From Psammoneis japonica (lineage: Eukaryota), in the NCBI GenBank assembly GCA_008632985.1, contig QPGO01000309.1, positions 1 to 63,044 of the forward strand: a stretch of 63,044 bases of DNA. Reading direction: 5' to 3'. The position numbers and the translations under genes are program-made. Of this stretch, positions 4,954 to 63,044 are shown one piece after another (the first letter of the stretch is position 1; each line of letters opens with the position of its first letter). The notes under the pieces are model-generated. The model was not told the origin of the DNA, made no database searches, and was given only the letters and a program-made list of their open reading frames with translations.

Positions 4954-4962
4954 ACAGCAGCA

Positions 4963-4992: not shown

Positions 4993-4994
<2 letters not shown>

Positions 4995-22900: not shown

Positions 22901-23621
22901 ACAACAGCGCAGCTGGTTGGGTGCATGAAAACCCAGCCCAGCAGCTGCATCTGATCTTTGCTGGTGGCGCAAGGTGCGCAACAGTGTGCGACAACTGTCA
23001 GCAGCCAGAAATGACAAGATGCTGCTGCAACCCAGCCATGCAATGTGGCTGGGCCATGCCTTGGCTGCCCTTGAAGGGGGGGGCATGAAGCTTTTGTTCA
23101 TTGCCTCGGCATGCTGATCTTGGTGTGGGGCCCTTGCTGCAGAGGTGTGCAGCGGCATTGGCAGCTCAGAGTGGCTGGCACTTCAAGCTGGAAGCGCTGG
23201 CACCTGCTGCGGCACAGGCACAATGTTGGTGTTGGGCGGGGCTGCTGCCTGGTCTGGATCATTGCTCTGCCCTCGTTGAGCTGCCGTGGTTGTTGTTGTG
23301 GCGGTGCACTGTTCACTGTCCTCGCCACAAGTCTTCTTCTTGGGAGCACGACACAGCAGCTCTTGGTTTGCTCTTCGAGAGAATGAGAGCGATGAAACTC
23401 CACAGAACAGCAGCCGTTGTTCCTGTGCTCGCGCAAGCTCGTTCAAATTGTTTGTTTGCGGTGACGATGACCCTGACAACGGCCGGAGGGTGGGTCATTT
23501 CGACTCGTGACTCGCTCGTCGAATCATTCCACGAGGTGGATGAGTGATGCGGTGATGGGTGATGGCGAATGGCAAAATGTGACCCTGCCAAAAAGAGGGG
23601 TGATTAGATTGGCCAATCATC

Positions 23622-24809: not shown

Positions 24810-25112
24810 ATTAACATGAGGTAAAATTATTGAATATTGCAAATTGCGCCACCACAGCACTCCGCACACTCGTCCAGGCAGAGGCAATCTACAATCTTTA
24901 GTCACAACACACGAACAAGACCACGACCGTGACTGGCTTAAATTTTGCTAGTACTGATGGTTGGTCCGCTCACCGAAGAACCTCTCCAACAGGGTTAGTC
25001 GCAACGATTTCTCAATCCGAAGATTGGTGCGGACGGCTACCTCACGCGCTCACGCTGTATTTTACCTTTAGGATACCTTTCTGCAGCTCCGGTGCCTTCA
25101 GCACTGTTACGA

Positions 25113-33569: not shown

Positions 33570-35079
33570 GGAGATACTTGTATAGGCGAGTTTGTCCGAC
33601 GAGACTTGGGAATTGGCTTCGTGAGATTGTCTGTAGAACACGATTAGAGTTGTGAGAAACACAAGAGTGCAACGAGAATGATGGTGCAATTGCGCAATGT
33701 GCGTTGGACTTACGCATTCTTGTTTTTACCACCAATATATGTTATGCCAAGAGTCTATTCGGTCTACTCTTGGCGATGATTGTTTGCTGTAGCTTGTGTA
33801 AACTAATCATTTAGGAATGGCCGTAGAGAAACATCTATTCGTTGCTAGCCATGGCCGTTCAGTCCGCGCACAGTGCATGGTGCATGACGTTAGGACATGC
33901 CCACGATGTGAGGTTGATAAGGATAACGTTGTACCGTACCAGAGTGAAACAACGAGTCCTGGGGGTGACGTACAGTATCAAGCGCCTGCTGAAATGAGAG
34001 GGGAAGCAACAAGCAATTTCAAATTGGGGTGTTGGAAAACGAAAAGAAAATACTAGAGTAGGTGTTGCATCAAGTGACGGGCGACTTACCGACGTTGTGG
34101 GTACCACTGGTAGAGCAATACAGTACTTTGTGGTGTGACCGTGTGTGGGTTTTATTTAGTTTTGTAAACTTCTACAGCACAACAGATGAAATGTCGAGAT
34201 ACCTGTAGCTCAATACCGTCTGAATCCCATTTACTTTTTCGGCAAACTCGTGCGCAAAGGCAGATGATGTATGGTTTATTCCAATGAATCGATGGGATCA
34301 CGATGCAGAGCCACCAGTAGCAAAAATGCTTTCTTTGTCACTCATAATCTCCTGTTTTTAAACTTATCGAGCATTCGAATCAAAGCTTCTCGGTACGTAG
34401 TAGTCCTCTGGTAATTATTTATTGCCATTAGTGACAATGTGTGCATGGACACACAAGGAGGAAGTGGTGACTTTCTCCTTTCTCCGTGCTGTAAGGATTT
34501 CTCAAAGCAACAAGAATTATGCTGTAACAAAGGACACGGCCATAAAAAGAGAGAAGCATACAAACAGTATCAGACGTTAGGAACGGGGATTGTGAAAGAC
34601 GTGCCAGGATCATGTGCAGCGCGGCAGGATCACGCATTGTGGCAGTGCGATTTGAAAAAATCAAGTGCATTGGAAAACGCCATGATGATAAAAAGAAAAT
34701 ACATACCTTCATACCTCAATCCAGTTGCAAGGCTCTAAGTTGTGCTTCACCATCTTTGCAACAACCACATCATCAACTGACTGTGCAGCGATCAGCGATG
34801 CACACCTGCACATCTTCAACCTGCCGAGTTAAAAAATGAGCGGAGTTTGCACGACGGGTCGCCAGTTGGCGATCGGCATGTTGTGTCGTCACGCGCGACG
34901 AAAATCAACGGTTTGCAAAGTTTCCGATGACGTAGGCAGGTACAGCTGCTAAGCGCTAAACGCGCGACATATCAGGGATACGTAGAATTGTACGTGGAAA
35001 ATTACAGAAGCCATTTTAAAACACCACAAAACAACTCCATATAATCAAAATTTCTCCTTATTGTCTGTTGTCTCGGCAA

Positions 35080-40600: not shown

Positions 40601-42320
40601 TTTTGTGCAAGTTGCAACACAACAGCATGCTGGCCACATTGTCCCCACACAACCTCTCTGCTTGTGCTGCCTGGCATGAAAATCTCTGGAGATCATGTGA
40701 GCTGGTGGCACAACAGGCCCGCCCCATGTGCCATCATGGCTGCCTTGTTCTTTGCATCTTTTCCCACACCAACACACTGCCTGCTGCCCAGAGATTGAAG
40801 TTCATTTTTTGCAGAATTAAAACCAGTGTCAGCGCAGGAGAAAAGCCCACTGCAGGTGAAGAAATTGAGCTGTTTTTTTCTGATTTTGGCTGTGAAAAGA
40901 GCTTGAATGTTGACTGCAGTCAATTGCAACAGTCAATTGTGATTGTGACCTCAGCTCTTTCCTGACAATCAGGTGATTGCAATCAAGTTTGCAACAGCGT
41001 GATTGCAGTCAAAGTGAGGTTGATTGCAGTCAATCCTGGCAATTGGTTGACACTGATTGAAGCTCACTTGGTGCAGATGGACAGACAGATTGTCATTTCT
41101 CTTGGCACTGGACAGCACAATTTCTCTGCGCATTTTTTTGCAATGACTCCACAGCACAAAAGTCAGCTGTTGTCATGACAATCATGACTGCATGTGAGCG
41201 CGCGAGCACTGAGCTTTGCACTCTCTCGTGCCACAGCAAGTCTGCGACCATGATGGCCAGAACAGACACATTCCAAACCGTCAAAACAAGCACAATGTGA
41301 AACAAACATCATGCAATTGTTGCTTCTTTCTCCTTTGTGTGGGCCAACCAACCAAGACCACTCAACTCTCAAAAAAGAAAATGGTGGTGGGCACTGGAGA
41401 GGAGCCTCTCTTGAAAAGACAATCCATGAAGTCACGGCAGACATGCAAACAACAACAACAACAACAATGCCCGTGGAACAGCCAGCATCACAATGATGGG
41501 CCTTCTTTCACATCATGTTGTTGTTTTGCAATCAGTTGCCCCAGCAAGTGAGAATGTGGAACAAATGGGTTCTGCTTTGGTCAAAAACTGAAATGACAAA
41601 AGGTGGCTGCCAACAGAGCACGCCCAAGAAAACAAAGCATGAATTGCATCTGTTGTTGTTTGCATCCTCTTGCAATCAAAAAAGAGAGAGAGAATGCACC
41701 ACCACACGCAACTGCACAATCATGTCTGTCTTGTTTCAAAGTCAATTGTCGCCACCACGGAGACGACTCCCAACAAATGATGACGACGTGTGGACAGCAA
41801 GGTTGTCACTGTGCGTGCATTTTGTGGATGTGCAACATTGTTTCCAGGCTGTGTTTTCCATCACTTGCAAAAAAAGGCAATTGTCATGGTGTCATGACCA
41901 CAACAACAATGGCAACAAAAGATGGGGCATGTCCTGTCTGTGTTGCACCATGACATGCTGCCAAGAAAATGAGGCATTTGTTGATGGTTTTCTCTGGTGT
42001 TGTGGGTTGGCATCTTGGCCATTTTTGTAGGATTTGACATGCTCTGCCCAACAAACAAGAGCAGTTTGGGGAATGTGTTGTCCAAGATTTTTGGATGTCC
42101 CCAATGCTGGGACGCGACGACCGTCATTGTGCTCCAGATTGTGCACTTTGTCTGTGCCAAAGAAAACACAGTGCTGCATGGTGACAGATGGGACCTGGCT
42201 GGTTGTGGACAATGTGAAGGAGAAACATTTGAAGAAGCAAGAGCAGGCTCAAGCTGCCATCATGGTCCGTCAAAAGGAATGGAACAGCAAAACCGAACAC
42301 ACTGTTGAGCTAGAGAGTGA
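35140..42320. other. TpA-depleted domain 5 (tRNA array plus unidentifiable decayed sequence)
   Basis: TA loss; internal paralogy between ~38530-38600 and ~40230-40300. Confidence 0.8.
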
Positions 42321-42862
42321 ACATGCGACATGCGAGTTACAAGCATTGTACAGTGCAGCCACATTGTCACAATCTCTTTTCTCTACTCTTCTATTGTCAC
42401 GCTTGAACCATCTCGAGCGGCTCATGTCGTGGTAACAGTTTTCATTCCAAATGTCTCTTGAAGGAATCTATTGCTTCACCACGGCGTTGGATGGATTTAA
42501 ATCGTCCAAAACGAAGTGCCGCTGTGGTCAGCTCCCGACTTGTGTTAAAACACAGGTTGCGGAGCCTCAAGAGCTCAATAAGGTTTCTCCAGAGGAAGGG
42601 TTTCCAGCGCTAGAATCAAAGAAAAACTCCAATGGCTTGAAGTTACTTTTCTTTTTCGCAAAGTCGATCATCTAATGAAAATGGGCGTGCGTGACATTGA
42701 CTTAATATTTCGGTACGTCTTTGAGAATTACATGTAAATTCAATAATTGAAAACGAACTGTCTCAGCTTCACAAATCACTTGTCTGTGTGACTAACTGAG
42801 CAGTATAGTCTAAACGTGATCTCCCAAGTTCGCACTCAAACACTGATTGGAACCTCGAAACT

Positions 42863-45370
42863 TTAAGAGCAGCTCAAGGTTTTACTCGATTGTACCAGGT
42901 CATTGGTGATATGCATCAAATCAAGGAATTCTTGTTTCCCGTAGGCACACAGCTCCACCTTCTTGAGTTCATCGTATCCGGGAAACGCGGAAATTGTTTC
43001 AAGCGCAATGCGCAAGATCTTGGACAAATTCCCGCCAGAACGGTTTCCAGCGCTAATCAAGGATATTCCAATAGCTTCAAGTTTCTTTTCTTTGGCACAC
43101 TCGAGACTAGACTTGTATGCTTCTCGAAGCAACTTGTCCTTACGTTCCAAAGATTCGTGATTGTCGTCCGTCGCATAGGTTGGTCCCACGGCAAAGATTA
43201 CGAATGCCACATTTAAATCCCCAAACGTCGTACCTGATTCTCTTGTGGGAGGGCCAATGACTTTTGCTTCACCGGTAGGGCATCGGACGTCGCCCCAGTT
43301 GTTCCTTTCCACTGGCTCGAGATGCTGGACTTTTTGCCGAAAGTCCGACCCACCCTTGTCTTCCACAGCCCTTGCAACAGATTCCTCGCACGTGCGACGG
43401 CAGGATTCATTGGTGGCGCAGACAATGGCCGCCGTGCGGTCCTTGTCGGACTTGAAATCCAAGACCGAAGAATGGCTCACCGACAATGTAAAGGGTCTAC
43501 TACCACTGCCCGTAGGAGTAACAATAAATTCTCGTGGAGGCAGTGGACAATCACCTGGTGAATTATGCAAGCGAGTGACTTGTTCTTCCTCGCGTCTTTT
43601 CTCGTCCTCTCGATTCTCATATCTCTGTAGCTCTGCCTCCTCTTCTTTCTTGATTTTTTTAGTCAGATTGTCAACCTGAGTTTGAAGGCTTATCGCTTCA
43701 TGGGGATTTTCGGAGGAAGCCATTTCTCTCTGCAGCTCGCGCTTCTTTGCCTTTAGGTCGTCCCGGTGAGGCAGCACCTCCCGGAGCTTTTCCAATTCTG
43801 CTCTTCTCGTCCTGTGCATTGCAGCTTGTCCCGGATCTTGATGGCGATTTGCACATTGGAACTCTTTTTCTGCTCGGTCAATGTCCAATTCTAACTGGTA
43901 TCGAGATTCGTAACCGCCGTTGATGAGCTTGTCAAAATCCTCTTCTGTAATATCGGCTTTATTGCGAATGTCGACTGGATTTCCGGCTCCAATACTTGCG
44001 AAAATATCGGACGAGCGTTTAGTCATGAGATCATTGGCCCTTGTTGCAGCTGCATATTCTGGAAGGACGAGAAAGTCGGCGAGTCGTCGTGGCGTAAAAA
44101 GCGAACGGCCCAATCCTTCGTTTACCCAACGGCACTCGACACCAAATAATTTGACAGAGGCTTCCATATCCAAGGGTTTTACATCCAGGCGGTCAAAGCG
44201 GGGTTTCTCACAATCCATTCCTTGCCCTTGGCCTGAATGATTAATGAGAACGATATGGGCATTTTGGGATTCAACAAGGTCCAGCGTCTTGAGAAAGTAA
44301 AACAACTTGTCAATGGATTTGGTATCAACGAGGCTTTTCTTGGGACAGGAACAATCAATGAAAATGAGTGATGAAACGCCATGAAGGCTCTCAGCCGTCC
44401 GCTCGCAGAGCGACACAAACTCATTGGAGTTTAAAGTGGTTTCACCAGAAAGAACGGCTTCCATAACTTGATGGAGACCACCCATGACTTGATCGCCATC
44501 ATGATTGTGGCCACGCGATGGCAGCCAAAAGACTTCTTCGAATTGTGGGAAATCATCACGTCGCTTCTTGATATATGCACACACAGCTTCTGCCAAGGTT
44601 GTCTTCCCGACACCCGGCCTTCCAGTAATCTGAACAAAGTGATATTTCAGAAGTCTGTATATGACTTGGTACATACTTTGTTCCCGACCGAAGAATTCTC
44701 TCGGATAGGAGGGCAGTATCCTCGCGGCTGGTTTGTCACAAAACTTAAACACACTGTCATGACGGTCACTTTGTTCCGGCAGAAGAACAAAGTTGGAGTT
44801 CTCGATGCCATGCTTGGCTACGTTGAAGGCTTCAATCACAGTCGACGTGCCGGTTGCAAGCATGGCGTAGAATACCCGAGTAAATTCGAGAGCGTCATCT
44901 GCCCAAAGCTTTCCTTTGCAGCAAATAACATGAGGAATCTTGACATTTTCAAATGCCTTTCCGGCTTCTAGAGAAGAACACGCCGACAGGAAAACTAGTT
45001 TTAAGCCACCAACTCCGTACATTTCGAGCATATCCTTTAGCTGAGGAATGTACAACGGATCCATGGCCCCACGACTTTCCAATGCAAGGTAATAGTCACA
45101 AGCATGACCAGAGAAATGTAAGATTCCGCTATCGTCCGCCTTGAGGATTTCTTCAAGTCGATTCTTCGTGGCCGTTTCATACACCACATTGTTAAAGGGT
45201 TTGCTCCCCTGGAACAAGTCCAGAAAAAGTGCTCTTTCTCGTTCATGATCCGGTGGCAAACCAAATTTCTCAAATATCTGACCTCGCATCTGGACTAGCG
45301 GTTGTGATTGTGAGACCACCATTCGGTTGATGGTAGTCTCCTCTCCGCCCATGCTCGACTGCGTAGCCAT
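42863..45370 (-). CDS. CHAT (caspase-like) protease - STAND/NB-ARC-like P-loop NTPase - coiled coil - Macro domain protein, 835 aa
   Basis: ILHFSGH and LVFLSAC (His/Cys dyad). FFGRE..ITGRPGVGKTTLA Walker A. Macro motifs AIVCATNE, TGEAKVI, VIFAVGP, AYKSSLECAKE, ISLISAG. Confidence 0.9.
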   Translation of the reverse strand: MATQSSMGGEETTINRMVVSQSQPLVQMRGQIFEKFGLPPDHERERALFLDLFQGSKPFNNVVYETATKNRLEEILKADDSGILHFSGHACDYYLALESRGAMDPLYIPQLKDMLEMYGVGGLKLVFLSACSSLEAGKAFENVKIPHVICCKGKLWADDALEFTRVFYAMLATGTSTVIEAFNVAKHGIENSNFVLLPEQSDRHDSVFKFCDKPAARILPSYPREFFGREQSMYQVIYRLLKYHFVQITGRPGVGKTTLAEAVCAYIKKRRDDFPQFEEVFWLPSRGHNHDGDQVMGGLHQVMEAVLSGETTLNSNEFVSLCERTAESLHGVSSLIFIDCSCPKKSLVDTKSIDKLFYFLKTLDLVESQNAHIVLINHSGQGQGMDCEKPRFDRLDVKPLDMEASVKLFGVECRWVNEGLGRSLFTPRRLADFLVLPEYAAATRANDLMTKRSSDIFASIGAGNPVDIRNKADITEEDFDKLINGGYESRYQLELDIDRAEKEFQCANRHQDPGQAAMHRTRRAELEKLREVLPHRDDLKAKKRELQREMASSENPHEAISLQTQVDNLTKKIKKEEEAELQRYENREDEKRREEEQVTRLHNSPGDCPLPPREFIVTPTGSGSRPFTLSVSHSSVLDFKSDKDRTAAIVCATNESCRRTCEESVARAVEDKGGSDFRQKVQHLEPVERNNWGDVRCPTGEAKVIGPPTRESGTTFGDLNVAFVIFAVGPTYATDDNHESLERKDKLLREAYKSSLECAKEKKLEAIGISLISAGNRSGGNLSKILRIALETISAFPGYDELKKVELCAYGKQEFLDLMHITNDLVQSSKTLSCS

Positions 45371-45889
45371 TTTCTGAGACGTGAATTGGCTTATTTTGTC
45401 CGCCTGCTTAAAAAAAGAAATGGTCTAGGTTTTGATTAATACCGATTGATCTTTACGTCATTCAAGGCAGAGTCAACGTTGTCTCACCGTTTATTGTGCC
45501 AGGTTCAGCCAGATGGAGTTCCGCCTGAAGCTTCCGGTTTCGTGCTTGAAGTTGTTCCTGCGGAGAAATCCGTATCGTTTCTACGAGTACTCTTGCGTGC
45601 GGAGTTAGATCAGGTCGCCCGAATAAGCAGGGAACGCAGAAAATGCAGATCGGAAGTATTGTGGAATTATGCCACCCCATGTGGCGTGGGCGATGTTGTT
45701 CAGATACGCCCGACTAGAATTTCAATCGAGGCATGACTGACGCAATAGTCTCAGACATACAAATTCTACATACGATTGAAACATGTATAAAGATACCACG
45801 TTGAACTCAATACGTGTCTAACATACAACGGCCATGCGTATGGTTTCATATGTTGACGCACTCCAGCCAATCAGCACGCTGTCTGTAGA

Positions 45890-48800
45890 GCAGAATGCAC
45901 TGCCTTTCCCAGCTGTCGCGCGTTTCGCACCTTAACTCATTCGTGCGTCGTCAATGGAGCAATTGTCTCTCCAGCAGAGAGCACGCCGACTGCCACAGCG
46001 TCTGCACATTTTCACACATTGATGCACTGAGCCCCTCCAACCAATCAGAGTGTTGTCAGCAGAGAAGAGCCAAAAACTCCCTTTTGGATGCAGAGAAGAA
46101 GAGGCTCCTCGGTGTTTTTTGTTCTCTCACAAAAGCGAGGCCCCCTTTCCCAGTTTGTGTCGCCGTGTGTTTGTTGGCACATGCCTTTTCTGTCATTCAA
46201 GCATCTTGATGATGGAGCAACAGAGCAGCTGTCTCTTGAGCAGAGAGTGCAACTCACCAGAGAAGAGAGCTGGTGTGCCGCCAATCTGACAACACTCTGC
46301 TGCTGTGGAGAGATGGCTTGGTTGACAGCATTTCAGTGCACTCCCACTCTTCATCAACTGGCACATTGTTTTGAGCAGGGTGTGGTGAGAGCCCTCGCCA
46401 GTGCATCTGCTGTGTTGTGTTGATTTGAGCCTGGCACAAACAAGAGCCACACATGAGGATGTTTGCATCGACGTGGCATGTGAAGATCAACTGCAGTGAC
46501 GCGTTCCAGCCCTGGGTGGGAGCTCGCAGCACTGACGTGTGACACAAACAATTTTTGTCATCCGTTGCATGTTTCGCACATAGATTTCTACGTGTGACAT
46601 TAAAAAAAAATTGTCCAGACTCGCTGTTTTGCGCAGCCCCAGATGTTTTGTTTGACGAATTTGCAGAAACGACAATGCACCAGTTGCATTCTTCAATGTC
46701 TGAAGAATGTAGATGGCCAAGTAAAAAATGGTGCACTTCAATCATGGGCGAGTTTGTGCATTCGCAAAATTGCCTCATTTTCTGTTGGCAATCATTGACA
46801 TTTAAATTGCCCGACAATTTCAATGCAGAGCTCGCACGAAGAAGTCTGCGGGCCCAATGTCACACGGATTCCCACCTGCGTCTGGAACGCGTCCAGTGGT
46901 GTCTTTTTATCCCAGGGTGAGAAATAATTTGTGGACAAATTGCTCAGTTTTCTGCATGTTTCTGCACCTGACACACACTCAGCATCAAACCCACAGTGCA
47001 AAAAATTGAGATCTGACAAGAAACAGCCCTGACGCATGCTTGGAGAATGTGGAACTTCCAATCAGCAAAACACTGACCAAGAAAGCAGCTGACAACGAGG
47101 GTGTTGAGGCAAAGGGCAAGGAAGATTCCAAGTCAAACGCAGTCTGTTTCACTTGGAATCAACCAGCACCAGGTCGGCCATTTGGTTTGCAAAAAGAGGC
47201 CAAAACCACAAAGAACAAGAGATGCAAAGAGGAGCTTTTGGCTGCTCTTGTTGCAAGTTTTCTTGCTTGGTGTTTTCATGGCAATGCTCTTGGGATGGCC
47301 ACGTCCAACCTCCTTTGAAATTTTGTGTCAATTGTTGGGGGATGACAAACATGTGGACAGACACCAACATTTTGGCAGATGTCATCTTTGAGCTGCCTCT
47401 GGCTGGAGACAGCTGTCAACAACAATGACATCCAGAATTTCAGTCACACTGCAGTGCACATGCAGACATGATTGTGGCATTGGCGTTTGTGCTCCAAAGA
47501 GAGGCACCGCCCAACAACATGTTGTCATGGCAGACCCAACAATTTGGGCTGGAGTGAGTGATTTCAAGATGCACCTGATTCCACTCATTTGTCTTGGGCT
47601 GTTGTCTTTGAAAAAAACAATGGCAACACTGAAAAACTTTTTGCTGGCAACAATGAGGACAGCAGTGCCAAACTGCTGCTGATTTGCCAAAAGCCAAAGA
47701 CAAAACTTCTTCAAAACCACTGCTGCTCAAATGGTGTGGCCATGACCAGCACCATCTTCATGAAATGCAGAGCAAAAAAATCTTTCCCATTCATTGTTGC
47801 ATCGCGCAATGAGTCTTTGTGAAAGTGCTCTGGACTGCACCAAGCAAACAAAGGTGTGGAGAGTTTGTCAGCTGTTGAGATCAAATCCACTTGCTTTGCA
47901 ATTGTGCTGCATTGTGAAGCTGTTGCATCAAGCCATCCATGCAAGCATGATGAAGAAGAAACAGAAGACACAGGTGTGTTTTTGTTTTTCAAGAATGCCA
48001 AGCTTGCAAGGAGAGAATTCAAAGGAGCCAATGTGAGAGCGAAATGCACGACAGCAGGGAGCCATTGATTCTGCCAGAGGAGCACTTGAGGAATGACATG
48101 GCAGGGCCCTTTGTGGCTTCAGTGCAACAAAAAAAATGACTCCACAGCCTGCCTGCATGCCGGCATGTTGCATTCTTGTTGCTCTCTCCCAAGTGAGTGT
48201 CACTGTGTGACTTGGTTGGCTCTTGTTGTCGGGCTCCTTGTGGCATGCCCATGTGTGTCTACACACAGCCCATTTGAGGAATTGCTGCCACCAACAAATG
48301 GGATTTCCAAAAAGGCAACTGTTGTGGAAAATGGCCCCAGAGTGAAGAAACAACCCAAAGGATTGCCTGCTGCCATTGTCTCATTTTGCTCACACACAAG
48401 ACAATGGCGCCATCATTTGATGCAGCGCCAAGACATGAAAAAGCCAAGATGCTGCGCACAAACTGCTGGGTCCTGGCTGTTGTTGCTGTCATTTTCCTGA
48501 CTGTTTTTTCCTGACCATTTGATTGGATGTTGCAAAAAGGGGAAATGCCTGACATGCTTGAGCAGCAAAACAGAGGCCACCCTCCAAAATCTGCTGTGCT
48601 GCACTTGAGGGCACGCCACACCAGCACCACATGTCGTTGCTCTTCTAAATCTGTGATGCTGTTCTTTGATGAGTCCCTTGTGGCACTCCCACGTGTCTGC
48701 ACTCAAATGTGATGGCATTTGAGGTGGCACTGACACATGCCAATGACTCCCACAAAAAAAGGCCCGCCATGACACGCGCCAATGACTCCCACAAAAAGGC

Positions 48801-49430
48801 CCGCCGTTGTCAATGCTGGACAAGGCAAACAGAGAGTTGTCAAGGCCTCTTCTTTGTGTTGCTGCTCACCCACAAGAAATGCACATGGGACAATGGCAAT
48901 GCCACTCTGCACTTGTTGGGCACAAGAATGGATGTGTGCTGCAACACAACAAGCGGCGCAACCCACAAGAGATGAGCAAGCCCAGCTTGTGGACTCTCAA
49001 ATGTGGAGCTCACACATGAGGAGATGAAACCATTCCAACAACAAGGACACACCATCACACACAAAAATGACCACTGCAGGACTTGCTCAAGCCAATTGCA
49101 GCTGCAGTGCTTGGCACTTTTTGGGGTGGATGCACAAGCACAAGCCACACAGCTTGCCCTTTTGCGCAGAGCAGGGAGACGGCACTGCTTCTTGAGAGAG
49201 CTGGAGCACAAAAACAGCAGCTGCTGCTGCTGGACAATGGTCCCCATGATGTGTTGCTGCCACAAGCAGCTGTTGCAGAAGCAGTCCTCTAGAGAGAGTG
49301 AGCCTTTTCCCATCAACTCTAGCCAGGTAGAGTTTCTTGGCTTTGTCGCCATGATGTCGCTGCTGGTCAGCTTTTTGCACCTCCTCATTTCACGAGTTGT
49401 CTGTGTTTGCATCCATGACTGGGTACAAAT
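45890..49430. other. TpA-depleted decayed domain 6 (boundaries approximate)
   Basis: TA loss except inside the MITE. Confidence 0.8.
46498..46893. mobile_element. MITE copy D
   Basis: TIRs gacgcgttccagcctgggtggga / tcccacctgcgtctggaacgcgtc; TSD cagt on both sides. Confidence 0.9.
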
Positions 49431-49903
49431 TGGCTGTAGACTTCTACACAAATTTGAAATCTTTTGGTTGGTTGAACTCTGTCGAGAAAATCAGACACTT
49501 CTCTATGTAACTCTTCGGTGATGAATGTGTCATGTGACACTTGTATGATTTCACGTCTTTTGATTGGTTCGTCGTGACGTCAGATGGGCTTCGTTGCGGA
49601 AGAGCCCGCCCAAAAAAGAACGACATCCATCTGGCAATGTCGTCGTCGTCTCTTGCAATATCCAGCTGCCTTGTTGTTTGTTGCGACAACTCAAATACAC
49701 ACAACACATGAAGGACACAGGAGACGGTAACCAAAAGAGAGTATATTCACAATCATCGCAACAGCCAAACACTCTGTTTTTGTGTGTAGTAGTCTACATG
49801 GATTGAGAGAAAGTTGCGATTCTATAAAAAGCCTACCGTAACAACGAGCGCAAGAGCCAACAACAACAAGTGCAAACCGCTACATTTTTGTTTTGGATTC
49901 ATC

Positions 49904-50497
49904 ATGAGACGAAACAACTCCAACGCATGTCTCTTGTTATTGTTATTCTTGTGGCATACCATGCCTCGGACAGTCATGGCGTACGGTCGATATCATCCCA
50001 TTTGTTTCATTCGCTTCTACGAGAACGACAGTCGTCAATGCATGGACGAATCCAAAGCTCTTGGTGAGCACAGTACACGTGTCTATGGAGAGCATTATGC
50101 ACACATGTGTTTTCATGATGATAAAAAGTGCATTTCGCAACAACACGTGGAATGTTGTGTCGATACGGACGTGATTCAAAATTCCAATGATATTTCGGGT
50201 GAATTCTTGTATCTACCCCACAATGCCCAACGAGTACACATCAAGTGTGACATGGGACAACATTATCTCAAAAAGTGTCGTCAAGAATCCAAAAACAATA
50301 CATCATCAAAAACAAGATTACAACAAACGATTCCCATCTTTTTACCAATTACCGTGGCGATTGTAGCCTTTGTGAGTTTTATTCTCGTATCATGGATGAG
50401 AAACAACCAACGAGTCAATAACGAGGATGGTAGTGGTGATACGGTCAAAATGAATGACGAAGATGATTTGTCCACCTTTGAAGAGACAGCAGTTTAA
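49904..50497 (+). CDS. Small single-pass membrane protein with signal peptide and Cys-rich ectodomain, paralogue 1
   Basis: Signal-like N-terminus, C-terminal TM. VECCV and GDTVKMND..DLS are shared with 53139-53744. Confidence 0.8.
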   Translation: MRRNNSNACLLLLLFLWHTMPRTVMAYGRYHPICFIRFYENDSRQCMDESKALGEHSTRVYGEHYAHMCFHDDKKCISQQHVECCVDTDVIQNSNDISGEFLYLPHNAQRVHIKCDMGQHYLKKCRQESKNNTSSKTRLQQTIPIFLPITVAIVAFVSFILVSWMRNNQRVNNEDGSGDTVKMNDEDDLSTFEETAV

Positions 50498-50739
50498 TGT
50501 ATGTATTATATACTGGACGACGATCATTTCGGATCAATACACGTGCACATGTTTTCACCAACAATTACACAGAGTGAATGCTACTTTAATCTAACAATAC
50601 ACACCATGTTTCAAAAAAGCAACGTCTATCGTAACGTGTGCTCGTACACTGTAGAAACACAGACAAGTGTTCCTCATGATTCCTGATTCTACGCATTCGA
50701 ACGATGCAATCACTGAGCCCCGACACACACGCATGCACT

Positions 50740-52650
50740 GGAAGAATCTAGAACACAACAAGCATGGGATTCTTGTTTTGCTGCTTGGTGAACAGTTGAT
50801 GAAAAGGTGATGATGTGCATCATTGCTGCTGTTTTGGAGAGAGGATGGTGGTGGCAAAAATGTGTCTCTTGACCAGCTAACTTGTTGGTGGTGGTGTGAG
50901 AGCATCATGCAATCACTGCACCTCTTGGTGGCAGCAGTGTCCACTCAATCTTTAACCAGGTCTCATCTTGTTCCACACCCAGTCTGATGTGCTGGAGAAA
51001 GTGGCGGCGAATGCTGGCATGGCTCTTGGCACAATGTGTGTGCCAGTGCTCACCACCAGAGGTGACACGCCATTTTGTCTTTTTCAAAGCACAGTGCAGC
51101 AGGAGCACAAAGTCATCTTGCCAGGATGAGGTTGGCACTGTGGGTTGCATGCCAGCTTTGCATGGATGCAATGACAAAGGCAGTGGTGCTGACATGCAAA
51201 GAAACTCACAACAAAATTGAGGTGGCGCCATTGTGGTGTGTGCATGTCCAGCAATTTTGGTGGATGATTTTTCAGCCTGTGGAGACAAAGAGGTGTGCTC
51301 AATCATGGGGCGCTGCTGTTGGGGACGCGTTCCAGGTCTAGGTGGGACCTCGTACTACTGAACTGTGACATCGATAGTTTTTTGAGTCTCGTCGTATGTC
51401 GCGCACGTAGATTTCTACGTGATTTTTTCGATATTTTGTGTCATTTTACGGTACACTTATTGAGCGATCCGTCGAACAACTTTTGACATTTTTTGTTACA
51501 GCGCGATTCTACAATGTCTTAAGAATCGCGTAGGGCAGGCGAAGTTGCAAAAACGTCGAGTGGTAAGAGGCATAATTGTACCACAAACTTGGCCGTTTAT
51601 TTGATGTTGAAGATAAACATATCCATTAATTAAATTCTCGTACTACGGAGCTCGCACGTAGAATTCTACGGGCCCAATGTCACACGGAGTCCCACCTAGG
51701 GCTGGAACGCGTCTGGGAGAGGCAGCAGAGCACAAGGGGAAATGCAGCACCGCCAGGAGTGACCCAACAATGGTGTGCATGAATTCTCTTGCTCTGATGG
51801 CCACAACTTGCGTGCTGCTGACTTTGGTGCTCTTTTGTTCACACTCAAGCAAGCACAGTGAGGGCATTTGAGAAATCACTTGCTCAAAACCATGTTGTTG
51901 CAGGCTGTGTTTTTTGAAAAACAAAAGTGGCACAAAATGCAGAAAAGCAGCCATGCTTTGCTGCTCCAAGAGCCAGCTTGGTTGGTGGCAAAGATGAAAA
52001 AAGAACAACTGGGTGTTGTTGCCAGCCACTTGTCAGCCATCAGACCAATGGTGCCTTGTTGTGTGCCTTGCCACCAGAATGATGCTCTCATCCAAGTCCA
52101 ACAGCAACCTTTTTGGAAAAAGTTTGGGCACTTTCAAGCCAACAATGAGCTCTGCTGCCCTCCAGCTCAATTGTGTCATTGTTGGATGGGAACACGGGAG
52201 GAGACAATCATGCACATGATGCGTGTGCATGACTCCTCCTCTCCATTGCTGCAAAACACATGGAGAAAATAATGTGCAAATTTGTTGCAGAGCAGTGGTG
52301 CACAACAAATCATGTGGGAGTGTCTTTTGGAAGTTTCCTTGGTTCACACAAGAGTGCCAAGAAAGAGGCAAGTGGGAGCCCTCCAAGGTGCTCCAGCAGA
52401 GAGAGGAGAGGTGCTTGTTTTGGGCTCCCCCTCTTTGCCCTGAGGTGTGAAAAAGACAGTGACAACCTTGCAATCTCAAGTTTGCCATGATTTGACCAAG
52501 TTGGACGGGAGGGTCCGTGTCACTGCTCCATTGTCACTGGGGATCCTTGACGTTTTCGTTCCATGTTGTGCACCTCCGCTGCTCGACACGAAACTGAGGG
52601 ATCCATTCGATTCGAATCATCGTGTCCTGCGCGTTGAAAAAATCTCAAAC
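50740..52650. other. TpA-depleted decayed domain 7, interrupted by a TA-intact MITE
   Basis: TA essentially absent on both sides of 51324-51713. Confidence 0.8.
51324..51713. mobile_element. MITE copy E (youngest-looking, TpA intact), 390 bp
   Basis: 24-bp TIRs gacgcgttccag(gt/cc)ctaggtggga, 22/24 match; TSD tggg. Confidence 0.92.
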
Positions 52651-53138
52651 GGCAGAATTCGTACTGTACCACAAACTAGCTGTAGATTTCTACAGGAATT
52701 CTTTCCATGTTGAACTTGAACTTGACTTGTCGTAGAATCTTGTCGTACGTACAGCTTCTGTGAAGACATACTAGGTTTTACGGATGATGGACAGAACAAT
52801 GTTCTCATTGCACTTATTGAACTGGTCATCATGACGTCATTACTGACAATTGTTCCATGATTTTCACACGTTTTGATTGGTTGGTTGCTCAGAGGTGATG
52901 TTCTACTCGCCTGTGCAGAATTCATCCACACATACTCCGTACAAAGAATGTCCATCGATCGGCGCACGTTGTCGACGCTCTCTTGTCACAAACTCAACGC
53001 TCACAGTGCGCTGTCACGCAATTCTCTCTACTAGTCGGATGCTTTTCCGCCACCCTCTAGTAGACAAAAGCTTGTGATTTTGAAACGATCCAAGCTATCC
53101 CCAATTATTTGTGAAGGATCTTTAGCCGCAGCATCATC

Positions 53139-53744
53139 ATGTTGTTGTTGAGAACGTTCAACTTGTTCTTGGCATTGTGCTGCTGCCATTGTTGGATCAT
53201 GATGATTCCATTATCGGTGGTCATGGCCCATGCGCATACTACTAGTACGAGTCAGTCTTTTTGCAATCTTGCCATGTACGAGGAAAACCAAGAATGTAAC
53301 ATCCAAGAATCATCCAATACCATTGTACAGAAAAGTCGAGTGCAGGGAGATCATTGTGCCTCCTTGTGTGGAATCGAATTGTGTCTTGCCGGTGACCATG
53401 ATGTAGTGGAATGTTGTGTCCATGCCGACGTACTTCGTGATTCCCAGGATATTTCTCGAGTATTGACATTGCCCGACCATGTCCAACAAGTACGTGTCGT
53501 GTGTGAAATGGGATTTGAGTACAGTACTACTACTTCAAGTCAAGAAACAAACTACGAAGATGACGAACTCTCCAACAAGAGTCATCTTTTACAAACGGTC
53601 CCTTGCATTTTTTTCGCCCTTGTCATTTTTGTGGGTGGTTTTTCGTTTGTCAGAAAACTACAACAACGAGTTCTTGATCATGACGGTGGAGACACGGTCA
53701 AAATGAATGACGATCAAGATTTGTCGGGAACCTTTGGTCTTTGA
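53139..53744 (+). CDS. Small single-pass membrane protein with Cys-rich ectodomain, paralogue 2 (201 aa)
   Basis: Homologous to 49904-50497. Confidence 0.8.
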   Translation: MLLLRTFNLFLALCCCHCWIMMIPLSVVMAHAHTTSTSQSFCNLAMYEENQECNIQESSNTIVQKSRVQGDHCASLCGIELCLAGDHDVVECCVHADVLRDSQDISRVLTLPDHVQQVRVVCEMGFEYSTTTSSQETNYEDDELSNKSHLLQTVPCIFFALVIFVGGFSFVRKLQQRVLDHDGGDTVKMNDDQDLSGTFGL

Positions 53745-54465
53745 GATGCAGCAGCAGCGCTCGTCCTCGAGACGAACTTTTTTTGTAAACAAAATTGTAT
53801 AAAAGAGCAATACACCCATCATTCTTTATAGAGTTCATGGTGATTTTGTTGTGACTCTAGAGGAGTGTTATATCAAGTCAGTGCTTCCTATAAACTATAC
53901 ACCATAGCGCATGGAAACTAGAATTGTTGTTGTTTGAGTCGTCTAGACTGGGTATAGAGATCCGTTCCAGAGAAAAACCAATGAATCAAACCGTGGCGAT
54001 TGTGTAAAAACATGCTCTGCCAAACCAACATTTTGTATAAACTTAACGGTATACTACACACACACACACACAGTTCCAAAAATAGCTTGGTATATGCACG
54101 AGACGAGACAATATGGATCCTTTTTTCGAGAGAGAGTTCTAGCTCGATACACACACAAGATTGTGCAAAATGGTACGATAGTATAGAGTCCAAGCGGCGA
54201 GACCCCCCCCCGCAAAAGCATTTATAGCCAGTATATTCTTTTTTGCTCCATAGCGTATCTATTCCACATGTGTTTTCGGGGTGACACTTGTTTTGCCTAC
54301 TGGATAATGATGCGATAACCGCGCACCTTTCTTTCTTGTCAAAGAATACGCTGTAGCAACAAACGGCAACGCTTCGAACGATAATATGCCCACTCGCAAT
54401 TCGTAACGAAATAGGACACTTCTTTTTTAAATTAGCATTCCGCACTATACTTGGTATTTTTAATA

Positions 54466-56340
54466 TTATTGCTGTTCCTTTTCACTCTTGTCGGCGGATA
54501 ATTTCCGTACAGCAACATTTTGGTCGTCGTCCTTGGAAGCATGATGTGGTTTGAGAATGCTTCGACTAAACAAATCGTATTGATCATGAGTCGCCGCATG
54601 ATGGAGTAACGTTTTCTTTTCCACATGATAGTCTCCCTTGACAATACCCACGGTATTGTCCATGACGTCGGTAGGGATCGTACTTTGCAACAAGGCACTC
54701 ACAAAGGTTGTCTTTGTAGTAGTAGCATGGAGTTCATCTTGTGCTGTCGTAGTAGTTGCATCACACGGAGCTGCCGTTTCCAAATCACCACCGCCACTCA
54801 TGTTGCTGCATTTACTCACATCGTCACCATTGTTTCGATAATGTTTTCGTCCGAGTCTCTTTTTAAATTGCGGTTTCTTCATTAACGCATTTCGTGCCGC
54901 CACGGCTTCGGCCGAATAATCGGAATGCGGAAAGACAAAAATATGAACAATGGCACCGACAAACATTTCGATACAAATCAAATAATCCTGAAGTCCCTTG
55001 GCAACGTCTTCGGACGTCCATTCATTGTTGTAATGTGGAATCATGCCCGCTTGATAGAGCATGGATATTCCCACACTTTGCCACCATGTAAAGAATACCA
55101 ACGCCTTGACCGATAAGAATTTACCGACGGGTCGAATGGGAGACAGCTCATTCTTGGTCGCATAATAAAAGAAAATCAAACAATACAGAGCCCAACATTG
55201 CGATGTATTGGTCAAGATACAGATATACAGATATCCCGACGTGAATCCAAAATCCCCCTCCTTGTAGAGTCCATGCAATTCCAAAATCATGACAAAGACA
55301 CTCGAGACCGCTTTGAGCAAGACGTATTGCAAGACACCAAATTTGCACTTTACAAAAAAGGGACTCGTCCATTCGACTGTACCACTCTTGTTGGTTTTGG
55401 GTTGTCCCATGAGCCACGGTTTGACACACCATTGCAATCCCCACATGTGTACACCACGGGTCGGTGACTTGTCTTTTAATAGCAAAATCAAGGCCTCTTG
55501 TCCACCCAAAACTTCAATTAGAAACTGCAAAAAGTTGTAAAGCACATAGGCTTCATAACAATCTCTTAATGTCTCAATATAGATTGCAAATTCGTGAAAT
55601 CGCAAACACAACCACGATTCCAAACTGTAAATGGGAACCATCCATAATATGCGAACAATGTAGCATTGAATCTGAGCTTGATTGTAATTGGCCAAATGCA
55701 TGACGATGCCATACATGCTGATTGGAAATCCCAACAACACAAAGGCACCCGCAGAAAACCAGGCAATCAAGTGTGGGTCCGTGCTATAGTAGACATAATA
55801 TAGTTTTTGAATAGCAGCAGAATTGAGTTATAAAAGTAAGTAAAACATTACAAGTACGCATACAAACCATCCTATACCATATATACACACATCATGTCAT
55901 TACTCAGCCACTTACCCGTTGTTTTTTAGTTCATACGAATACCACACTACACACAGTACCATGCCCACGAGCGAAAACCAAAACGTGAGTTTCGCTAGTA
56001 TATTCATGAGTTGTGACATACTTTGATAACAGGAATCGGTGGGTGTAGGACATTTTCGAAATATAAACCGGACCGTATTTTTCAGAGCTGCCAGTGGTCC
56101 ATTTCGTTTTTTCAAAGGAAGAATCGATTGTTGAGCATCATCGTCTTCGTCTTGTAGCGAACGCGTGCGGCGCAATCGTGGTTCTGTTTCTAACGTTACC
56201 ATGAGCGGTGTCATGAGCAAGTGTTCTTGTTCTTCATCATCATTAGCATTGTTGTTGTTGTGAAGGGGTTGTGTTGTTGTTGTGGATGGTAATGAGGTAG
56301 TCATGCTGTTGTTTTTAGGATGACTAGAGGATAACGCCAT
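54466..56340 (-). CDS. TMEM184 / organic solute transporter alpha family protein. Intron 55784-55915.
   Basis: IVRILWMVPIYS, RDCYEAYVLYNF, GVLQYV, KFLSVKALVFFTWWQ and QDYLICIEMF are family motifs. Splicing gives NNG|TDPHLIAW. Confidence 0.92.
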
Positions 56341-58865: not shown

Positions 58866-59149
58866 TATGACAAAAGGAGCAGCGCAGTTCCGTCACTTCA
58901 GCAAACGCAACACACAACTTCTTCTTTTTGTGTTTTCTCTTTTCTTGTGTTTGGTGTTGCCTGCGAGATGCACGGATCGAATTTTTGATGTGTGAGTAGA
59001 CTTCTACGGCAGAAATGTACCAGAGTGAGTCGAGTCACGGGGTACCTTTCTCCTGTCCGCGACTGACGGTCTTGCCTCTCGTTTGACACCACAAGCTTAG
59101 CTTGGAGCGGAAGCAACAGCAACAGTAGAGACTTTAACAACACCGCGAT

Positions 59150-62100
59150 GCCATCATTCTCCTTGTGTGAGAAATGAGACTGCATTGGAATTGTTGGTGC
59201 CACTTGGTGAAAAATGATTTGAAAATTCGGCATTCATCGGGAAACCAATCTCGGCACTGTTGTTTTCTCTCTGCTGGCAGCATCAGCACACAATGCGGAT
59301 GTGATGAATTTCAACCAACTGTGCAAAGAACACATGCAATTGCACATGTGCATGGCTTGCTGTTTTGCAGCATTGATGAACAGAGCAAGCGGCAACAAAC
59401 TGCAATGCCAAAAACAATTTTGGGCAAAATCTCACTCGTCACAAAAACATCCATCAGCAAGTCACCACATCGCAGCAGATGTGAGAGCTGACCAATCAGT
59501 TTCATTTCTTTTTCCGCAACTGATCAATTGCATTCATGACAAAAATGCCCATCAGAAAATCAGTTCCTTGCAGCTGTGAGAGCTGTCATCACCAATCAGC
59601 TTCGTCTCTTTTTCCGCAGCTGATCAACCGCGTTCTTCGTGATTGGGGTGCTGCAAAGCAGATCTGCCGGCACTGCAGTGTGGTGGCTGCTGGCACTCTT
59701 GGCTCTCTGCTGCACTGCTCTCTGGCAGAGCTGGCTCTCTGGTGGCTGGCAGAGAGCAGTGAAACAGACTCCACTGTGTCAGCTGCTCCAAGAAGTGTCC
59801 ATCTGCCTCTGCAGGAGCTGCGACCAGCCAGCCGGTTTGGCAACAAAAAGATGTGCAAGCCAGAATGAGCAACCCACTGCCGCAGTGTTGGCAACACCTC
59901 ATCAACTCCAACAGGAATTCTGTTGTGGTCTCTCTGCAGAAGATGTCCTCTGTCAATCCAATGGCAAATTCTTTGCCACACTGATGGACTTCATTGTCAA
60001 CAGTGCCTTCTGTTGAGCTGCAATCCTCTCACTTGCAGGTGCCATCTTTGGAGCATCCTTCAAAATGCCTTGATGCAACAATTCTTGAGTGTGCCATTGC
60101 CACAAATCTTGGAGTCATTTGTTTGCAACTTGTGCGGTTGACTCGAGATGCTTGTCAAGAGGTCATGGAAGCTGCAAATGCTGGTGTTTTTGAGCACGGC
60201 AGATTCAGTGGCAATTCATGCACAGTGTGGGTGCTGGACTTGGGTCGCCATTCTCTGTCAAACTCTGCTGCATGGTGTGACAGGCTTTGATGGCTGCTCT
60301 GCATTGACATGCCACCCAAACACTCTTTTGTTGAGTGTGTGGGTTGACTGCATGATGAGGAGAGAACAAGGAGAAGCAGGCACTGCTCTCGCTGCTTGTT
60401 GTTGATGTGCCTTGAGCCTGTTGCATTGCGCGCCATGGCACTCTCATTTTCGCACAAAAAAATGCATGTCCTTGTCCATGTGTGCTCTTGGGGTCAGGGT
60501 TGGCTCATGGTGCAGGGCACGGCCATCAAGCATGCTTGCATGCTTGCGGTGTTCAAATGTTGGCTTCCATGCACTTGACAACCTCAGCTGAGCTGGGGTG
60601 TGCAGCTGGGACATGTGGAGACAGCTCTGCTGGCAAGGAAGATGCCCTCTCCCAGTGCTCACCAAGCTGGGAAGCTGGGCCAGAGGGTGGGGACAATCAA
60701 GCTGTCAACATCATCTCTTTTTTCTTCTTTTTTTCTCTTTGGAGCAATTGCCGAAGAGAGTGGAACAGAGCGGACACACGAGCTTGGTTTGGCTTTGCCA
60801 GTGTTTGAGAAATCCTGAAACAAATGGCCAGAGTGAGAGACAGTTGCCTCTGCCTTCTGGGGAACACCCTGGAAATGAGGCCAATTTTGTGGGAGGGAAC
60901 ACCTGAAAGGGCCAAGGGGAGGGGAAAACAAAAAGGAGAAGATTGCGACAATGTGCGGCAATGACATTCGGGTGGGTGTGCTGTTGGTCCCATGCATGCT
61001 CCAGGCCAGCTGGCCATCCATCCCACATGACGGCTTGGAAGTGAACGCACAGTGTGGCTGGCAGTTGGATGGGCAACAGCTGCAAGATGCAGGGTGTGTG
61101 TGGCTGTGCCAAGTGTTGACAAGACAACAAGTGACAGTCACCTCTTCCAGCTCCTGCAGAATGGTGAGAGAGGTGCCTGGAGTTGCCAGCAGATCTCCCC
61201 TCATTTTTTAAGCAGCCCCTGATTTTGCCGGAGCACTGCTCATTGCACAACCTTTTGAAGAGAGTGCCCCAGCCTTGTCATTGACAACAGGGCCTTTGAA
61301 GGCTGGCTTGGCCTCCCCACATGTGACCTCGTCAACAACTTTGTGCCAAGTGCCGAGCACTTTGCAGAGCTTTCTCAATGATGGTGGGTCTCAAACTGCC
61401 CAGCTCTCCAAGAAGCAAGCCACACCCTTCACACCACCTCATGTTGCTTTGGCTTTTCAACACACACAACACAAACAGTGTGTTTGACAAGTTGGCTGTG
61501 GTCGTCACCCAAGCTGTGCAAGCATCTTGCCTCCTTGTGCACAAGCGCCGCACTGTCGCCCTGCTTTGTTGTTTCTGTTTGCCTGCATCCTGGAACTTTG
61601 ACCCCAGTGTTTTTGCCAAGTCAAGTGTGCACATGGCTCTTCAAACCAAATGGTTGGTGCCAGGATTTGGCAGGCTTTCAGCTGGGAAATGCTCCAGTGC
61701 CCTGCAGCAGCTTGGTCATTGTGCACAGCTCTGCACCGTCAACTCTGCTCACATGTTTGCATGATGCATTTTTGCTCTCACACCACACAGCTCACAAGAA
61801 CAGCAGCACTCATTTTGGCACTTGCAATGGCCCCTGGGTGCGGCAACTCATTTGCTGTGTGGGCAGAGAGGAGGGCACAAAGCAGTTGTTTTGTCTGCCA
61901 CATGTGTTCTCCCTGCAGCGTCATCTCACAACAAACCACACATGATGACAGGTGGTGCCGGATGTGCTGTGTGGTGCTTGACCAATGTTGCTCTTGTTCT
62001 TGAGCCTTTTTTGCTGCAACATTTTTCCACACAGATGACAAGGCCAAAAAATCATCTTTGTTCTTGGCAGAGAGAGCAGGCTGGTTCTGTCCCCCCCAGC

Positions 62101-63044
62101 AAAAATGAAGCCTGTCAAGCATGATTTGCCACCTCTTCACAGACTCCTCCTTTGGCTTTGGTTGTTCAAAAATTGCAGCACAAGTGCATGCAAAAAATGT
62201 GGTTTCTTGCAGGTGCCCACCTTGCAGCTTTGGAAAAGCCAAAGTTGCCTGGAGAGGCGCAGCTTTGTTGGCTGGGCAAAAAGGCCAGCACTTTTGAACT
62301 TCTGGCGCCTGTCGTGGCTGCTGGGGCTCTTTCTTTCAGCTTTGTTGCTCTTGGAGCGGCTGTCACTGTGACTTGGTGAAGACTCTTGAAGGATGTTTTC
62401 TTGCTCTTTTGTGTGTGGGAGCGAGCCACTTTTCAAACCCTGCAAAGATCTGGCGCTTGTTCTGTGTCTGCCTTTGTCATGAGACAATGGACACCCAGGT
62501 TGGGCCCATCTTTGGAGCTGCTCTTGGCTGTCTTGACAGCATCAACGAAGCCCATGATGGCACATGGGGTTCAAAGCTGAGCAGCGACGGCCCAACAAGC
62601 CAAAAGTGATTTTCCAGAGCCTTGGCTCAGTTGTTGAGTGCCCTGATGTTCTGGCTGTCAATGCGCATTCGCCACACAAGAATCTGGGCTGCTTGTCTGA
62701 CCATGGGGAGCGTGGGCACAGCGGCACTTCCTTCCATTGCCAAAATGTCCTTGGAAGACTTGCCCACAGAATGATCTGAAGACAATCATGAGGAGTTGGC
62801 AGCTGTTCTTGGCACTCTGTTCTTCTTGAAATCGAACATTGATGAGTGCACGGTGGCGGGCGTCATGAGACAAAAATGCAGTCACAACAACTCATCAGTG
62901 TGCAGCACTCAACAGCATTGACACATCTCCACAATTGCATCAAATCTGTTGACATGCAAGTCTTGCAGTGGCAACACTTTCGACAAATGAGCCTCTACAA
63001 AGGTTGCCGTGTGTCTTCTGGGCGGCTGCTTTCTTGCACGCGGC
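59150..63044. other. TpA-depleted decayed domain 8, running off the window end
   Basis: TA loss; short imperfect repeats accaatcag..ttttccgca.ctgatcaa at ~59490-59630. Confidence 0.8.

Follow-up and report, generated by a model that had tools for sequence, protein, structure and literature searches.

The DNA analysed here (contig QPGO01000309.1 of the Psammoneis japonica assembly GCA_008632985.1, 63,044 nucleotides; hereafter the window) carries at 51324–51713 a TA-rich miniature inverted-repeat transposable element (MITE) embedded in DNA that is almost devoid of the dinucleotide TA. Comparison of this copy with its older relatives in the window gives the direction of change, which is from TA to TG or CA. 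The change is restricted to TA and CG contexts, with one hit per site and no runs on one strand, and the affected DNA forms blocks whose edges span at most 100 bp. The reading that best accounts for these observations, to which we assign a probability of about 85%, is that a diatom-like eukaryote has had its non-genic DNA altered in place through conversion of TpA to TpG or CpA, together with a slower conversion of CpG to TpG or CpA, and that the MITE at 51324 is a recent insertion that has not yet been hit.

The element at 51324–51713 (plus strand, 390 nt) has the structure of a MITE. Its 25-nt ends (left, 51324–51348, plus strand; right, 51689–51713, minus strand) form terminal inverted repeats in which 23 of the 25 positions of one end match the reverse complement of the other, and by reading of the sequence it lies between two perfect copies of a target-site duplication, TGGG, at 51320–51323 and 51714–51717. 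The termini are conserved across five full copies, and the family is short, non-coding and multicopy: a profile search of the window returned six copies, 355–405 nt in length, and one fragment. Perfect 4 bp target duplications also surround the copies at 46498 (CAGT) and 19277 (GTGA), while the duplication is imperfect at the 2820 copy (GGAT versus GGGT) and ambiguous at the 19107 copy. The subfamily of the 51324 copy is abundant, and the copy is matched by contigs from two of the three read runs considered below (X1 and X3). It holds 28 TA (observed/expected ratio, o/e, of 0.94) and 31 CG (o/e 1.62), and its CA and TG counts are close to expectation. The first-pass annotation had described a TA-rich copy within a TA-free host, and this description holds: the flanks tested, 50954–51323 and 51714–52269, contain no TA at all.

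The five sibling copies have lost TA to different degrees. The oldest, at 27123–27477 on the minus strand, has a background divergence of 34% and has kept TA at 0 of 11 sites and CG at 0 of 15. A further old copy, on the plus strand and delimited by profile search and alignment, is free of TA and is split into a 5' part (19107–19276) and a 3' part (19673–19903, the first 4 nt of which are the GTGA duplication) by a sibling that was inserted into it on the minus strand (19277–19672) and that has GTGA on both sides. This nested copy is necessarily younger than the host copy because it interrupts it; it retains five TA where the interrupted copy retains none, so that TA retention is greater in the younger of the two. 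The remaining siblings lie at 2820–3224 (minus strand, two TA left) and at 46498–46893 (plus strand, six TA left), and a terminal fragment of the family lies at 3924–3967 (minus strand), where TA-poor block 1 described below ends. Microsatellites of (TG)n and (GGGT)n-like sequence border the 2820 copy at 2760–2820 and 3225–3290.

The 51324 copy represents a subfamily with a diverged interior and aligns cleanly with its siblings over only ~98 nt on the left and 78 nt on the right, and the substitution counts for the family were confined to these ends. The first-pass annotation had compared two segments with the interrupted copy and had reported that every TA was changed. At the right end (51641–51713 versus 19831–19903, 73 nt without gaps) all five TA have indeed become, in order, TG, TG, CA, TG and CA, with three other differences and with CG kept at five of seven sites, and at the left end (51324–51421 versus 19107–19204) all seven have become CA, CA, TG, TG, CA, TG and CA, with 13 other substitutions and CG kept at seven of ten. 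CpG, too, decays in the blocks, more slowly than TA.

The same pattern extends to all five siblings. Together they provide 59 cells that can be compared with the 12 terminal TA sites of the 51324 copy, and these cells now read TG (26), CA (25), TA (five) or something else (three); thus TA has been lost from 54 of 59 cells, and 51 of these 54 losses lead to CA or TG, in nearly equal shares (25:26). At other terminal positions the background divergence is 17.1% (93/545, comprising 45 transitions and 48 transversions), or ~31% per dinucleotide, and the binomial probability of at least 54 of 59 TA cells being changed at the background rate is 4 × 10^-22 (Fisher's test gives P = 2 × 10^-31, although it sets dinucleotide cells against single positions). 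Eight of the 12 sites show CA in some of the siblings and TG in others. A TA ancestor is needed at these eight sites because a change from CA to TG takes two steps, whereas TA is one step from either. One or two siblings still retain TA at four of the 12 sites. The exchange is one-way: of 78 cells that correspond to CA or TG in the 51324 copy, 73 are unchanged in the siblings and none reads TA. None of the 59 TA cells has turned into CG, and the two strands of one site were therefore not hit together. Conversion of CG to TG or CA is found in 27 of 87 cells. Per copy, at a background divergence of 12–17%, TA is kept at 0–3 of 12 sites and CG at 9–12 of 18.

A second family gives the same polarity. 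An intact tRNA-Thr(TGT) gene at 35097–35168 on the plus strand (ARAGORN; Rfam RF00005, 56.5 bits) stands at the edge of one of the TA-free blocks and supplies the reference state; in this family the ancestral state is TA because the functional molecule fixes it. Seven decayed copies follow on the same strand between 35510 and 37587, with TA changed to CA or TG in the D-loop and in the anticodon loop. The D-loop motif GGTAAC now reads GGCAAC, GGTGAC, GGTGGT or GACAAC, and TGTAA in the anticodon loop reads TGCAA or TGTGA and, once, TGCGA. The decayed copies score 50.4, 44.6, 42 and 31.9 bits in Rfam, with three of the seven undetected. ARAGORN labels three of the decayed copies tRNA-Ala owing to the change of TA to CA in the anticodon, and tRNA-Thr pseudogenes that read as tRNA-Ala are thus an annotation trap in this genome. 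The direction proposed in the first-pass annotation is supported by these tRNA copies as it is by the CA/TG split, the one-way exchange and the nested copy. That annotation had also named the finding that would reverse it, a family consensus with TG or CA at these positions; as far as the reads bear on this, it was not seen, and 13 X3 contigs carry the TA-intact form.

The TA loss seen in the MITE siblings is a property of large parts of the window. When TA is counted in 1-kb bins, stretches of normal DNA are seen to take turns with stretches that hold 0–6 TA per kb. The latter form eight blocks, each TA-free or nearly so and CG-poor, which together span 30,908 nt (49% of the window) and hold 57 TA (o/e 0.03); the o/e of CG in them is 0.29 and those of CA and TG are 1.77–1.78. 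Outside the blocks the o/e values are 0.57 for TA, 0.99 for CG and 1.23–1.24 for CA and TG. By arithmetic on the block counts, the surplus of CA and TG in the blocks is about equal to the missing TA and CG. The blocks lie at 1–3960 (block 1, five TA), 10695–15348 (block 2, 15 TA), 18770–23604 (block 3, 13 TA, five of them within the nested MITE copy), 26819–28515 (block 4, three TA), 35132–42310 (block 5, eight TA in 7.2 kb, with the decayed tRNA copies inside), 45934–49289 (block 6, ten TA, six of them by position in the MITE at 46498–46893), 50954–52661 (block 7, in which the TA-intact MITE sits, with one TA outside the element) and 59136–63044 (block 8, two TA in 3.9 kb). X1 contigs agree with the assembled sequence of blocks 5 and 6.

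The edges of the blocks are at most 100 bp wide and lie ~280–450 bp beyond the ends of spliced X2 contigs. At least one block boundary, that of block 1, falls on a transposon junction: within 3919–3985, two MITE termini abut exactly at this edge, and the inner one is free of TA while the outer one retains a TA.

Survival of TA within the blocks depends on its neighbours. TTAA survives best (relative survival of 0.25), against 0/106 for ATAT and 0/203 for ATAC/GTAT, and TA between a purine and a pyrimidine is almost entirely gone. The residual TA is found mainly at junctions of T-runs and A-runs (for example at 3027, 12070, 20578, 22468 and 40818), with TTAA making up 16–17 of the 52–57 counted. 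CG survives best between G and C (GCGC, 0.68) and worst between A and T (ACGT, 0.20; TCGA, 0.12). A single deaminase that prefers T before its target might be the source of both changes; CG survival is indeed lowest in TCG contexts, but it is about as low in ACGT, and the pattern may only mirror the A/T flanks. A runs test of CA versus TG in the blocks gave z values of -0.02 to -1.85, no stronger than in normal DNA, and thus no strand-coordinated tracts. As to the origin of the targeted DNA, MITE copies are among the sequences affected; the 50 longest stop-to-stop frames of the blocks matched no Pfam family, the block frames at 3325–4017 and 38016–38867 have no homologue at E <= 0.001, and the frames of the blocks hold no recognisable remnant of a viral or transposable-element protein.

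Genes are spared. The window encodes a leucine-rich-repeat protein (LRR_6; 4615–5964), a TIR-Kelch protein (7829–9961), a CHAT-STAND NTPase-Macro protein (42863–45370, minus strand) and an Ostalpha transporter (54466–55770, minus strand). The best relatives of the transporter that carry a name are all diatoms (Thalassiosira, Cylindrotheca, Skeletonema, Epithemia and Striatella), with 53–75% identity across its ten best-scoring matches, and on this ground the source is termed diatom-like. The genes have long intact frames, and their TA o/e is 0.48–0.54 across all three codon junctions. Directly upstream of the ATG of the CHAT-STAND NTPase-Macro gene lies an 84-nt intron with GT..AG ends (45402–45487, minus strand), the joint of which is present in one X2 contig; the intron contains five TA, and each flank outside the spliced X2 contigs contains 7–19. 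The sparing of genes does not come from selection on proteins, because the codon junctions are alike and both the intron and the untranscribed flanks are TA-normal. As a side observation, the gene neighbourhood is immune-like, with LRR_6 and TIR-Kelch at 4615–9961 and CHAT-STAND NTPase-Macro at 42863–45370, and TPR repeats occur at 56.8–58.4 kb. The normal DNA also includes a gene-bearing duplicate (15572–18147 and 23616–26147, 85% identity); the TA-free flanks of its two copies do not align with each other and give no substitution spectrum. A perfect (100%) tandem duplication of 484 bp at 31636–32603 overlaps the start of a 474-residue frame (32145–33569) without a Pfam match.

Contigs of read runs X1–X3 were placed on 20 kb of the window (35001–55000) at 80% likeness. 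The X1 contigs (31-letter words, ~55–65× word depth) reproduce the TA-free blocks with 0–9 differences per 0.8–5.5 kb; a single contig of 5,491 nt covers 41033–46523 with three differences, and three contigs cover 37543–41031 with 0–2 differences each. The X1 depth of most blocks within 35–53 kb is ~55–90, which is gene-like, while the bins at 38336–41670 reach 134–479. Over two MITE positions the summed X1 word depth is 108,420 (51009–51675) and 47,509, compared with 55–90 in neighbouring bins; we do not use this sum as a copy number, and take it only as a sign that the MITE family is very abundant. A metagenome scan with a conserved 14-nt MITE motif returned 119 loci, among which an nhmmer profile recognized no family members, the motif being too short to be specific. 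Run X2 behaves like RNA, with a contig spliced across 84 nt at 45402–45487; its cover on the blocks is next to nil, blank cover being no evidence of silence. Of the 1,439 X3 contigs, 13 fall on the 20 kb, all within 51324–51662 and including the subfamily-specific interior, with 0–4 differences each. The TA-intact form of the MITE is therefore abundant, or expressed, in the X3 sample. The window and the contigs show 342 differences in all; among the 40 that were listed, 26 lie in blocks and 14 outside. Exchanges among CG, TG and CA make up 13 of the 26 listed block differences and one of the 14 outside, and CpG is therefore still the most variable class of site inside the blocks. Three of the 26 read TA against TG or CA in the window.

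We propose the following mechanism. A region-targeted process would hit single strands separately and turn TpA into TpG or CpA, and a slower decay of CpG to TpG or CpA would proceed in the same DNA. Transcription units, together with ~300–450 bp on each side, would be spared. The MITE at 51324 would be a recent insertion into a block by a still-abundant family, and it is because this copy has not yet been hit that its comparison with older copies gives the direction. We infer that an enzyme would carry out the process and that silent chromatin would be its target, in the manner of the chlorarachniophyte Bigelowiella natans (discussed below), and that the CpG part would be ordinary decay of 5-methylcytosine in methylated silent DNA. 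For the TpA part the leading candidate, which we hold at somewhat less than even odds, is an adenine deamination that yields hypoxanthine and may strike either strand.

The direction of change would be reversed if the 51324 copy had been hit by a C-to-T process resembling repeat-induced point mutation (RIP) while its siblings kept the original CA and TG. Such a reading could appeal to the sites at 51395, 51644 and 51667, where all five siblings share one state, and to the RID-related DNMT4 of unknown function that many diatoms carry, according to the part of PMC9998398 drawn on here. It is already contradicted by the CA/TG split at eight of the 12 sites and by the TA kept in siblings at four; moreover, the 51324 copy keeps its CG excess with CA and TG near expectation, the intact tRNA-Thr bears the TA states and the X3 contigs match the TA form. 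We regard it as extremely improbable. Scarcely more credible is an artefact of sequencing or assembly in which modified bases at TA and CG in silent DNA were misread. The near-complete loss, as in block 8, and the sharp edges are what such an error might produce, but X1 contigs at ~55–65× show the same TA-free sequence at gene depth, CA and TG are interleaved without strand runs, the decay of the siblings is graded and their differences stand at fixed positions, and genes keep long intact frames. Selection against TA in non-genic DNA as harmful (through cryptic TATA or poly(A) signals, TA/TTAA transposon targets or nuclease sites) would suit the context bias of the surviving TA, with TTAA at 0.25 and ATAT at 0/106. 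Acting site by site, it would nevertheless have to clear ~1,000 positions from dead MITEs, tRNA pseudogenes and non-coding DNA that add up to ~31 kb, almost all of the changes are single transitions (51/54), and the same signature arises de novo in B. natans lines under minimal selection (Mettrop et al., bioRxiv 10.64898/2026.01.13.699255, April 2026; statements about this preprint refer to the sections drawn on here). We give selection a very small probability, if a slightly larger one than the artefact.

Two further alternatives leave the direction intact. The thymine of TpA rather than the adenine could be modified (for example to 5-hydroxymethyluracil or 5-formyluracil) and mispair with G, giving T-to-C changes; an A-to-G change on one strand looks in the sequence just like a T-to-C change on its partner. 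In its favour, the hydroxymethyluracil of dinoflagellates occurs preferentially at TpA and TpC, and 5-formyluracil causes mutations. On the other side, the literature on 5-hydroxymethyluracil, among the titles listed, is all on dinoflagellates and none of it on diatoms, and the B. natans authors favour an ADAT2-like deaminase (bioRxiv 10.64898/2026.01.13.699255). We judge a thymine modification to be rather unlikely, although it is the main alternative for the chemistry and well worth keeping in mind. The MITE at 51324 might alternatively not be young, having been protected (transcribed or bound) or having been inserted after the process stopped; in the sequence, a protected copy looks the same as one inserted once the host had mutated. 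Protection would fit if X3 were an RNA-type library, the element then being expressed, and the tRNA-Thr gene that borders the block has likewise stayed intact. Against it, the 4 bp duplication is perfect, the copy differs from each X3 contig at only 0–4 positions and older copies of the family in the same kind of block show graded mutation, and we consider it unlikely.

Several points weigh against rewriting in place followed by a recent insertion. The signature is one of sequence, and the enzyme, the base modification and the methylation are all hypothetical. The three sites with a uniform state in the siblings may reflect subfamily differences, and their direction is unpolarised from the window alone; the family consensus itself consists of six copies and one fragment of the window plus indirect read evidence. 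In the duplicate at 15572–18147 and 23616–26147, which is normal DNA, TA and CG are also the least conserved dinucleotides (0.62 and 0.61, compared with 0.72–0.76). X1 is possibly from the same sample as the assembly, in which case it rules out a consensus artefact and does not represent an independent strain, and the library type of X3 is ambiguous, so that its cover of the MITE could reflect either DNA abundance or expression. Two differences from B. natans belong here as well. In place of viral inserts, the targets in the window are MITEs, tRNA pseudogenes and DNA of single-copy depth, with a foreign origin not supported by the frame searches. Further, CpG decays here (27/87 cells; o/e 0.29), whereas the sections of the preprint drawn on make no mention of CpG, and this decay may be a second, independent process.

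The literature searched, in which most matches were judged from listings, contains no report of TA-free blocks or of TpA hypermutation in diatoms, and as far as it shows, the B. natans preprint is the sole report of targeted A:T-to-G:C hypermutation in a nuclear genome. The observations amount to clean evidence for TpA-erasing hypermutation in diatom-like DNA, with the direction of change fixed from within the window. If the window is typical, a diatom carries the end state of TpA hypermutation over about half of its DNA, the phenomenon is extended to a major group of primary producers, and the process reaches transposons and non-genic DNA of single-copy depth and not only viral inserts. The MITE and tRNA copies of graded age would then be natural clocks for its kinetics. 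There are also practical consequences: TA-free DNA has only TGA stops, which leads to long false open frames, and in it the indices by which RIP is recognized come out inverted. A broader and doubtful proposal, which we offer as speculation, is that diatoms and chlorarachniophytes share a chromatin-guided DNA-editing defence acting on TpA and CpG, the two self-complementary pyrimidine–purine steps, which would drive all silent DNA to a state with TG and CA only, with 100-bp precision around genes. In this proposal one deaminase family coupled to a silencing mark might carry out the conversion at both steps, and a lack of TA could bring a benefit of its own, as such DNA has no TAA or TAG stops, TATA boxes, AATAAA signals or TA/TTAA targets for transposons.

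Among known systems, decay of 5-methylcytosine at CpG in methylated transposons resembles one half of the pattern. It converts CG to TG or CA, in line with the CG o/e of 0.29 in blocks and 0.99 outside, but it accounts for the CG half only, and methylation is presumed here. Very-short-patch repair in Escherichia coli depletes CTAG in favour of CCAG or CTGG, which is also a change of TA to CA or TG, and does so slowly and genome-wide. That depletion concerns one tetranucleotide, whereas here all NTAN contexts are lost, and only inside the blocks.

Comparison with RIP in ascomycete fungi gives both likeness and contrast. Both show defence-like transitions in a dinucleotide context, and in both, sharply bounded blocks of mutated DNA alternate with normal blocks that carry genes. 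At the level of the dinucleotide the direction is opposite: RIP converts CpA to TpA, whereas here TpA becomes CpA or TpG and the RIP indices are inverted (TpA/ApT = 57/1537). Strand-coordinated mutation tracts are typical of RIP or of APOBEC-type clusters. Such runs are absent here, and in contrast to RIP repetition is not evident, with most blocks of 35–53 kb at gene depth in X1, although the DNA may have been repeated in the past.

The natural tRNA substrate of ADAT2/3 has a U before the edited A. ADAT2/3 is also a precedent for one deaminase family capable of both A-to-I and C-to-U changes in DNA: amphioxus BjADAT2 accepts A as well as C in DNA for deamination (PMC10354150, in the part drawn on), and DNA deamination by Trypanosoma TbADAT2 is cited in bioRxiv 10.64898/2026.01.13.699255. 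The DNA contexts reported in these sources as drawn on are TCG, GAA and hairpin loops, rather than every TpA in duplex DNA.

The closest parallel is B. natans. In that alga, two regions of integrated viral DNA took up 231 of the 302 de novo single-nucleotide mutations, and 230 of the 231 were A-to-G or T-to-C, every one at TpA; the rate in the inserts is ~6 × 10^-7 per site per generation, ~1000 times that of the rest of the genome, the larger insert region, derived from nucleocytoplasmic large DNA viruses (NCLDV), is transcriptionally silent, and an ADAT2-like adenine deaminase was proposed (bioRxiv 10.64898/2026.01.13.699255). The two cases differ in lineage, B. natans being a chlorarachniophyte and the lineage here a diatom-like stramenopile, and in extent, with the TA o/e saturated here at 0.03 over 49% of the window compared with 0.45 in the NCLDV region of the preprint. 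The B. natans rate was also measured de novo, whereas the process here is known from its footprint in the sequence. They agree in the conversion of TpA to TpG or CpA on both strands (CA:TG of 25:26 in the MITE siblings here; the tRNA copies show these changes too), in confinement to defined regions with normal genes spared, and in long-term low TpA with high CpA and TpG in clustered 1-kb windows. From the figures given for B. natans in the sections drawn on (211 mutations, 6,169 TpA and 3,132 generations) we compute ~1 × 10^-5 changes per TpA per generation, or a half-life of ~6 × 10^4 generations. By extrapolation, if a rate like that of B. natans holds in the window, a TA-intact insertion within a block, such as the MITE at 51324–51713, would be very young.

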